Shown here piece by piece: positions 2,908 through 5,352 of a stretch of 64,000 nucleotides of DNA (the stretch's first letter is position 1; every line of letters starts with the position of its first letter). The notes under the pieces are model-generated. The model saw nothing but the letters and a program-made list of their open reading frames with translations. It had not been told where the DNA came from and searched no databases. The stretch is taken from NCBI RefSeq assembly GCF_041248615.1, contig NZ_CP158426.1; one strand, given 5' to 3'. Made by a program: the position numbers and the translations under genes. This stretch comes from Escherichia coli. GTDB taxonomy: Bacteria; Pseudomonadota; Gammaproteobacteria; Enterobacterales; Enterobacteriaceae.

Positions 2908-3927
2908 ATGAAAAGCATTTTAATTGAAAAACCGAATCAACTGGCAATTATCGAACGCGAAATACCTACCCCGTCAGCGGGTGAAGTACGAGTAAAAGTG
3001 AAACTTGCCGGAATTTGTGGTTCAGATAGCCATATTTATCGTGGGCATAATCCTTTTGCGAAATATCCGCGCGTCATTGGACATGAATTTTTTGGCGTCA
3101 TTGATGCAGTGGGTGAAGGCGTGGAAAGCGCCAGAGTCGGTGAACGCGTTGCTGTCGATCCGGTGGTCAGCTGTGGGCATTGCTATCCGTGCTCTATAGG
3201 TAAGCCGAACGTTTGTACAACACTGGCTGTATTAGGTGTGCACGCTGACGGTGGTTTCAGTGAATATGCCGTGGTTCCGGCAAAAAATGCGTGGAAAATT
3301 CCTGAAGCAGTGGCCGATCAATATGCGGTGATGATCGAACCTTTTACCATTGCGGCGAACGTAACCGGTCATGGTCAACCGACTGAAAATGATACCGTTC
3401 TGGTTTACGGTGCCGGTCCAATCGGCCTGACGATCGTTCAGGTATTAAAAGGCGTCTATAACGTTAAAAATGTGATTGTTGCCGATCGCATTGATGAACG
3501 ACTGGAAAAAGCGAAAGAGAGCGGGGCTGACTGGGCGATTAATAACAGCCAGACACCGCTTGGCGAGATTTTCGCTGAAAAAGGCATAAAGCCGACATTA
3601 ATTATCGATGCGGCTTGTCATCCTTCTATCCTGAAAGAGGCCGTAACTCTGGCTTCTCCAGCGGCACGTATTGTATTGATGGGCTTCTCCAGTGAACCGT
3701 CTGAAGTGATTCAGCAAGGAATTACCGGAAAAGAACTCTCTATTTTCTCTTCACGCTTAAATGCAAATAAATTCCCGGTCGTTATCGACTGGTTAAGTAA
3801 AGGGTTAATTAAACCAGAAAAATTAATTACCCATACGTTTGATTTCCAGTATGTTGCTGATGCCATTAGTTTATTTGAACAGGATCAAAAACATTGCTGC
3901 AAAGTCTTACTCACTTTTTCTGAATAA
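2908..3927 (+). CDS. rspB: starvation-sensing protein RspB (Zn-dependent alcohol dehydrogenase family)
   Basis: ORF track 2884..3927; ATG at 2908 after AAGGAG gives 339 aa; Zn-ADH motifs GHEFFG and CGHCYPC. Confidence 0.9.
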   Translation: MKSILIEKPNQLAIIEREIPTPSAGEVRVKVKLAGICGSDSHIYRGHNPFAKYPRVIGHEFFGVIDAVGEGVESARVGERVAVDPVVSCGHCYPCSIGKPNVCTTLAVLGVHADGGFSEYAVVPAKNAWKIPEAVADQYAVMIEPFTIAANVTGHGQPTENDTVLVYGAGPIGLTIVQVLKGVYNVKNVIVADRIDERLEKAKESGADWAINNSQTPLGEIFAEKGIKPTLIIDAACHPSILKEAVTLASPAARIVLMGFSSEPSEVIQQGITGKELSIFSSRLNANKFPVVIDWLSKGLIKPEKLITHTFDFQYVADAISLFEQDQKHCCKVLLTFSE

Positions 3928-3984
3928 TACCAATAACGGCGAGTAAGTAGTACGCATCTTACCTCTTTTTTAGAGATAACCATT

Positions 3985-5352
3985 ATGACAATAGAAAAAC
4001 ACGAAAGAAGCACTAAGGATTTGGTGAAAGCAGCAGTATCGGGATGGCTGGGCACAGCGCTTGAATTTATGGATTTCCAGTTATATTCGCTCGGCGCAGC
4101 GTTAGTGTTTCATGAAATATTTTTTCCTGAATCATCAACGGCAATGGCGTTAATTCTGGCAATGGGAACCTACGGTGCAGGTTATGTGGCGCGTATTGTC
4201 GGAGCATTTATTTTCGGCAAAATGGGCGACAGAATCGGGCGTAAAAAAGTACTCTTTATTACCATCACCATGATGGGGATCTGTACCACCTTAATTGGTG
4301 TGTTACCGACCTATGCACAGATTGGTGTTTTTGCACCCATCTTGCTGGTGACGCTGCGTATTATTCAGGGATTGGGTGCAGGTGCGGAAATTTCCGGTGC
4401 CGGTACGATGCTGGCGGAATATGCGCCAAAAGGTAAGCGCGGAATTATCTCCTCATTTGTGGCTATGGGGACTAACTGCGGAACCTTGAGCGCAACGGCA
4501 ATCTGGGCCTTTATGTTCTTCATTCTCAGTAAAGAGGAACTGCTTGCGTGGGGATGGCGTATACCGTTCCTGGCGAGCGTTGTCGTGATGGTCTTTGCTA
4601 TCTGGTTGCGTATGAATCTGAAAGAAAGCCCGGTCTTTGAGAAGGTTAACGACAGCAACCAACCGACAGCAAAACCTGCACCTGCTGGTAGCATGTTCCA
4701 GAGCAAATCCTTCTGGCTGGCAACAGGGCTGCGTTTTGGTCAGGCTGGTAACTCCGGTTTAATTCAGACTTTCCTTGCAGGCTATTTAGTGCAGACGTTA
4801 TTGTTTAACAAAGCAATTCCAACAGATGCATTGATGATTAGTTCGATTCTCGGCTTTATGACCATTCCGTTCCTTGGTTGGTTATCCGATAAAATTGGTC
4901 GCCGGATCCCGTATATTATTATGAATACCTCCGCGATTGTGCTGGCATGGCCAATGCTTTCTATCATCGTAGATAAAAGCTATGCCTCGAGCACCATTAT
5001 GGTTGCACTGATTGTGATTCATAACTGTGCGGTGCTGGGATTATTTGCTCTGGAAAACATTACCATGGCAGAAATGTTCGGCTGTAAAAACCGCTTTACC
5101 CGGATGGCTATTTCTAAAGAAATTGGTGGTCTTATCGCTTCCGGTTTTGGTCCTATCCTGGCGGGTATTTTCTGCACCATGACGGAATCCTGGTATCCGA
5201 TCGCCATTATGATCATGGCATATTCAGTGATTGGTTTAATCTCTGCGCTGAAAATGCCAGAAGTGAAAGACCGTGATTTAAGTGCACTGGAAGATGCCGC
5301 GGAAGATCAACCGCGTGTTGTAACAGCTGCGCAACCTTCAAGAAGTCTGTAA
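3985..5352 (+). CDS. ydfJ: MFS transporter YdfJ (metabolite:H+ symporter family), intact
   Basis: 455-aa ORF with multiple transmembrane segments; recognised as YdfJ. Confidence 0.85.
   Translation: MTIEKHERSTKDLVKAAVSGWLGTALEFMDFQLYSLGAALVFHEIFFPESSTAMALILAMGTYGAGYVARIVGAFIFGKMGDRIGRKKVLFITITMMGICTTLIGVLPTYAQIGVFAPILLVTLRIIQGLGAGAEISGAGTMLAEYAPKGKRGIISSFVAMGTNCGTLSATAIWAFMFFILSKEELLAWGWRIPFLASVVVMVFAIWLRMNLKESPVFEKVNDSNQPTAKPAPAGSMFQSKSFWLATGLRFGQAGNSGLIQTFLAGYLVQTLLFNKAIPTDALMISSILGFMTIPFLGWLSDKIGRRIPYIIMNTSAIVLAWPMLSIIVDKSYASSTIMVALIVIHNCAVLGLFALENITMAEMFGCKNRFTRMAISKEIGGLIASGFGPILAGIFCTMTESWYPIAIMIMAYSVIGLISALKMPEVKDRDLSALEDAAEDQPRVVTAAQPSRSL

Follow-up and report, generated by a model that had tools for sequence, protein, structure and literature searches.

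A very probably unoccupied lambdoid prophage attachment site within ydfJ in an undisrupted rspA-rspB-ydfJ-ydfI cluster of Escherichia coli

Genes and features of the ydfJ region

The DNA analysed in this study, referred to as the window, is a stretch of 64,000 nucleotides (64 kb) that matches positions 2659672-2723671 of the E. coli NRZ14408 chromosome (NZ_LT599825.1) with 0 mismatches. The region around ydfJ contains the following features.

1682-2896, + strand: rspA, first gene of the cluster, a D-mannonate dehydratase of the ManD type (enolase superfamily) by annotation and by the ManD profile NF043051 (744 bits, cut-off 550)
2908-3927, + strand: rspB, a Zn-dependent oxidoreductase of 339 aa by annotation and by NF007489 (692 bits, cut-off 376)
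3928-3984, + strand: rspB-ydfJ spacer, 57 bp, identical at 57/57 positions to the K-12 rspB-ynfP spacer and not the phage insertion point
3985-5352, + strand: ydfJ, intact, encoding an MHS-family MFS transporter of 455 aa, based on profile matches and comparison with K-12
4062-4077, + strand: predicted unoccupied attB for lambdoid prophages of the Qin/PPydfJ type, based on the K-12 junctions and the breakpoints of split genomes
5360-5393, + strand: terminator-like hairpin directly 3' of ydfJ, an 11-bp stem and a T-run, by consensus match only
5442-6902, + strand: ydfI, mannitol-dehydrogenase family, fructuronate reductase type, by NF011611 (653 bits, cut-off 603)
7317-8003, - strand: rspR (ydfH), annotated GntR-type regulator of the cluster, syntenic in most outgroups

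Both the open reading frame listing and direct reading place the stop codon TAA of rspB at 3925-3927. The ydfJ reading frame starts with ATG and was tested for frameshifts and stops within 3985-5352; none was found. The original prediction of rspB followed, after a 57-bp spacer, by a complete MFS transporter of 455 aa is therefore borne out by the spacer, the reading frame and the profile matches, and its coordinates 3927-5352 are exact, being the last stop bases of rspB and ydfJ, respectively. In the RefSeq annotation of NRZ14408 the gene product is a full-length "MHS family MFS transporter YdfJ". Downstream of ydfJ, the annotated order is ydfI, followed by ydfZ, rspR, ydfG and dcp.

The site had also been predicted to lack phage genes, and indeed none is annotated anywhere in the 64-kb window, in which the sole mobile element is one IS3-family transposase (21100-22328). 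The genes rspB and ydfJ are just 57 bp apart, and the prophage genes sought between them (integrase, tail fibre, lysis, dicB/dicF) are absent. A search for phage-derived sequence at 3928-5352 gave no result.

YdfJ matches the metabolite/H+ symporter profile TIGR00883 with 462.2 bits (E = 1.5e-138), above the curated cut-off of 443.45 and over the whole profile (YdfJ residues 23-418 aligned to positions 1-400 of 400), which makes it a member of the MHS family. It also matches Pfam MFS_1 with 131 bits. The family hits in its neighbourhood are genes for a ManD-type dehydratase, a Zn-dehydrogenase and a fructuronate reductase-type enzyme. The enzymes encoded by rspA, rspB and ydfI reportedly form a pathway from L-gulonate via fructuronate and mannonate to KDG. 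From this gene neighbourhood and the reported pathway we infer that YdfJ may import an aldonate or hexuronate such as L-gulonate, the substrate of the RspB, YdfI and RspA pathway. Unlike K-12, B, W and O157:H7, the strain retains the complete putative cluster for aldonate uptake and catabolism.

No terminator-like site was found in the 57-bp spacer between rspB and ydfJ. A promoter scan of 1400-7400 yielded 1 site, compared with 9 expected by chance, and no site in the spacer. Because the spacer is free of a terminator and a strong terminator-like hairpin follows just after ydfJ, ydfJ is probably co-transcribed with rspAB, in which case phage integration would also remove the promoter of ydfJ. 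The hairpin at 5360-5393, between ydfJ and ydfI, suggests a single transcription unit of rspA, rspB and ydfJ, with ydfI transcribed on its own or via read-through.

Several other parts of the window differ from K-12. The genes eamA and marB, separated by only 30 bp in K-12, have a block of ~7 kb between them in the window (15689-22848). The block contains a GntR regulator, PTS IIB/IIC/IIA components, a carbohydrate porin and a family-1 glycoside hydrolase that is split by the IS3-family element. Between dcp and ydeI (11021-11384) there is no ydeJ, which K-12 has at this place (b1537); the only remnant is 81 bp long and annotated as 2-oxo-tetronate isomerase (11065-11145). At 31286-32704, the position of the K-12 gene dgcF (315 aa), a sensor-domain diguanylate cyclase of 472 aa is encoded, and the K-12 allele appears to be N-terminally truncated. 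An intact ECSE_1600-family autotransporter of about 1806 aa is found at 45514-50934, and its K-12 counterpart is the pseudogene yneO. After hipBA, positions 52800-64000 hold a LysR regulator and about eight oxidoreductase or amidohydrolase-type genes, then an apparently intact fimA/chaperone/usher cluster; all that K-12 has at the corresponding position is the pseudogene yneL and ydeT, a truncated usher.

Junctions of Qin in K-12 and the attachment site

In K-12 MG1655 the Qin prophage is annotated at 1632277-1652745 (20.5 kb). Read in the orientation of the window, the order there is rspA, rspB (b1580), 57 bp, ynfP (b4534, 36 aa), the intQ pseudogene with the rest of Qin, ydfJ (b1543, 427 aa) and ydfI. 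In this annotation Qin has rspB on one side and most of ydfJ on the other, so the statement in the original prediction that Qin splits the two genes and truncates ydfJ in K-12 holds. Alignment around the Qin boundaries placed the prophage inside ydfJ; neither an insertion elsewhere nor an intact K-12 ydfJ was seen. The K-12 spacer has no interruption, and next to it, still beside rspB, are codons 1-31 of ydfJ, annotated there as ynfP. The product of ynfP consists of YdfJ residues 1-31 and five phage-encoded residues, and b1543 starts at Met29 of the full-length protein. When the two K-12 pieces are rejoined at the core that they share, an open reading frame of 1368 nt without internal stop results, which is 98.54% identical to ydfJ of the window, with 2 amino acid changes. 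This identity, along with the shared flanking genes rspB and ydfI, identifies the window gene as the ortholog of K-12 ydfJ.

On the rspB side, the K-12 junction is colinear with the window up to ...CTTGAATTTATGGATTTC, with phage sequence thereafter, and on the ydfJ side colinearity runs from ...GTGAATT-ATGGATTTCCAG... onward. The exact duplicated att core ATGGATTTC is found at both Qin ends in K-12 and occurs once in the window, at 4069-4077, which corresponds to codons 29-31 of ydfJ. At 4062-4068 it is preceded by an imperfect extension TGAATT(T), shared imperfectly between the junctions; the host-type and phage-type versions of this extension are partitioned to opposite junctions in K-12. 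The insertion falls at least 78 bp downstream of the ydfJ start codon. The window hence contains the sequence of which lysogens carry a copy at either end of the prophage, and both host flanks are contiguous with nothing inserted, being colinear with the K-12 flanks and part of an uninterrupted reading frame. Judged by these junctions, the window very probably represents an undisrupted rspA-rspB-ydfJ-ydfI(-rspR) cluster in which codons 27-31 of ydfJ carry an empty attB for Qin-type and other lambdoid "PPydfJ" prophages.

In YdfJ, the alignments to MFS_1 and TIGR00883 both begin at residues 21-23. The conserved core thus begins within the 28 residues that K-12 lacks, and this missing start would be the first half of TM1. 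A published account has Qin inserted at the ydfJ 5' end, depriving the gene of its promoter and 28 N-terminal codons (PMC6379469). The peptide across the att site, WLGTALEFMDFQLYSLG (a putative TM1 motif of 17 residues, window 4045-4095), is invariant in 79/79 intact YdfJ orthologs from >25 Enterobacterales genera. Nucleotide variation in the 9-bp core is confined to the third base of the Asp codon and that of the Phe codon. Integrases of the PPydfJ type may target a site that is constrained by the protein, which could give them a range across genera, and lysogens might keep a partly functional or phage-regulated YdfJ of 427 aa via the in-frame ATG; we offer this as speculation and consider it rather improbable.

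Lambdoid phages integrate by means of a tyrosine integrase that recombines attP with a host site. At ydfJ, the phage integrase (intQ in K-12, now a pseudogene) would recombine attP with the core inside the gene. Integration would leave a 31-codon 5' stub beside rspB, fused to phage sequence as in the 36-aa ynfP of K-12, and would move the remaining 427 codons ~20 kb or more from the rspAB promoter. The ATG of Met29 is the first codon of the duplicated core, so this remainder would still look like an open reading frame, as b1543 does. With no such integration in the window, the strain keeps the full-length transporter in what would be its ancestral operon context.

Gene order in outgroups and occupancy in E. 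coli

The YdfJ protein was used to scan one genome per species of other Enterobacterales, and the neighbours of the hits were identified by tblastn with the window proteins. This yielded 80 loci from Citrobacter, Enterobacter, Klebsiella, Raoultella, Kluyvera, Leclercia, Buttiauxella, Cedecea, Pragia, Gilliamella and other genera. In 78/80 of them rspB lies 45-176 bp upstream of a full-length ydfJ, usually with rspA before rspB and with ydfI and rspR after ydfJ. Because rspB is directly upstream of full-length ydfJ in nearly all outgroup loci, the contiguous order is ancestral. Contiguous flanks in the window and the outgroup order thus agree with the "unoccupied ancestral arrangement" that had been proposed for the site.

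One of the two exceptions is cut by a contig end. The other is Silvania hatchlandensis (NZ_JAMGZK010000053.1; positions 4900-5080 of the extracted locus, L086), in which YdfJ is matched from residue 25 onward and a lambdoid prophage end, with genes for a tail protein, a tail fibre and a DinI-like protein, abuts ydfJ exactly at Met29, with the junction GTGAATTTATGGAC. No rspB is present within 5 kb upstream of ydfJ in this genome. The prophage junction at Met29 indicates that the same att position in ydfJ is used outside Escherichia.

Among complete E. coli genomes, a 341-bp probe across the att site found the site contiguous in 2008 of 5426 (37%); with probes of 2.1 kb and 5.4 kb the numbers of contiguous genomes were 2012 and 2137, respectively. 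More than 60% of the complete genomes (roughly 3400) are occupied or disrupted at the site, and the median genome has two separate places for the 341-bp probe. Split records were read from samples of 40 rows, taken at even steps down the ranking. Every split record in these samples breaks at 4062 (start of the right piece) or at 4077-4080 (end of the left piece). The overlap of the left and right pieces, 4062-4077/4080, comprises 16-19 bp, which agrees with the 18-19 bp published as the att sequence of PPydfJ phages (PMC8112680).

The site is intact in ST131 strain 4433 and in a Nissle derivative and occupied in ATCC 25922. The phage genes that abut the truncated ydfJ are those for a tail fibre, tfaQ, pinQ and ydfK in ATCC 25922, and tail-fibre, NleG-family and DinI-like genes in O157:H7 F8798. 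In both genomes PGAP calls the truncated ydfJ a pseudogene missing its N-terminus. In the literature, strains W, K-12, B and Crooks are listed with Qin at ydfJ (PMC3032704). Lambdoid prophages and clusters of prophages are described as often integrated at ydfJ in STEC; the same work reports the locus as occupied in many E. coli strains, K-12 among them, and defined attB from a strain that had to be selected for its empty site (PMC8112680). In addition, 5 to 10 of the places that match the rspB-ydfJ region are on records classed as plasmids. Two genomes have internal deletions of the locus, namely MS 110-3 (52% coverage in two pieces) and EC291, which keeps only the ydfI edge.

Origin of the empty site and relation to known systems

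Two ways in which the contiguity of rspB and ydfJ could be misread are contradicted by the observations above. Integration of Qin-type phages in the spacer itself, with an att core at 3928-3984, would follow from a loose reading of Qin "separating" rspB and ydfJ; it was implied by a check proposed with the original prediction, and nothing computed here speaks in its favour. It is hardly credible, given that the K-12 spacer is identical, uninterrupted and followed by the first 31 ydfJ codons, and that the sampled E. coli genomes break at 4062-4080, well inside the gene. A core in the 57-bp spacer was accordingly rejected, and the place to seek it is corrected to the interior of ydfJ, at 4069-4077. 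Similarly, the contiguity might be an assembly artefact in which a prophage was collapsed or dropped. No point in favour of such an artefact was found, and its probability is minimal, because the window does not differ from the chromosome-level RefSeq assembly of NRZ14408 and 2008 independent complete genomes have the same arrangement, as do the 78 outgroup loci.

A further question is whether the site has always been empty or became so secondarily, through loss of an ancestral ydfJ prophage by precise excision (integrase/excisionase) or by homologous replacement from an unoccupied donor, either of which would restore attB exactly. The high proportion of occupied or disrupted genomes is in line with such a loss. 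Moreover, occupancy is mixed even among related lineages, so gain and loss at ydfJ must be frequent. A crossover within the 9-bp core would also leave no excision scar, because the host-type and phage-type versions of the extension sit at opposite K-12 junctions. On the other hand, the best 39 records after NRZ14408 over the 5.4-kb cluster are all contiguous, at 98.8-99.5% identity, but this is weak evidence and not decisive, as the ranking weights coverage as well as identity and thereby favours contiguous records. The phage-type polymorphism was not found at 4062-4068 of the window, which likewise speaks against a former prophage without being decisive. Overall, a secondary origin of the empty site is not the expected case, yet it has a real chance of being correct. 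An empty attB in an undisrupted cluster, which we regard as very probable, would provide a free landing site for lambdoid phages with effector genes, possibly including Stx-related ones.

Intact ydfJ with an empty site is an ordinary and common allele state, and the location of the site, the truncated K-12 gene and the role of ydfJ as an integration hot spot have already been published. K-12 MG1655 shares with the window the flanking genes rspA, rspB, ydfI, rspR, ydfG and dcp as well as the spacer, but has the 20.5-kb Qin at codons 29-31, leaving the 36-aa stub and the 427-aa remainder, whereas the window gene is uninterrupted. Rac at ttcA and other K-12 cryptic prophages (PMC6379469) are comparable in that a prophage integrating site-specifically in the 5' part of a host coding region changes the N-terminus of the product. 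They differ in the target gene, and at ydfJ the phage rebuilds no equivalent N-terminus, so that 28 codons and the operon promoter are lost. The lambdoid PPydfJ prophages of STEC and EPEC (O157:H7, O26:H11 and others, with nleG/nleC effector genes) share this attB position; in O157:H7 F8798 the phage meets ydfJ at ATGGATTTC, with TGAATT-ATGG on the phage side as in K-12 Qin. In these genomes the site is occupied, often by tandem prophage clusters, whereas in the window it is empty. By published account, O104:H4 C227-11 (Nakamura et al. 2021, PMC8112680) likewise has an intact ydfJ without prophage and served to define the 18-19 bp att sequence; it differs from the window in its strain background, which for the window is that of NRZ14408.
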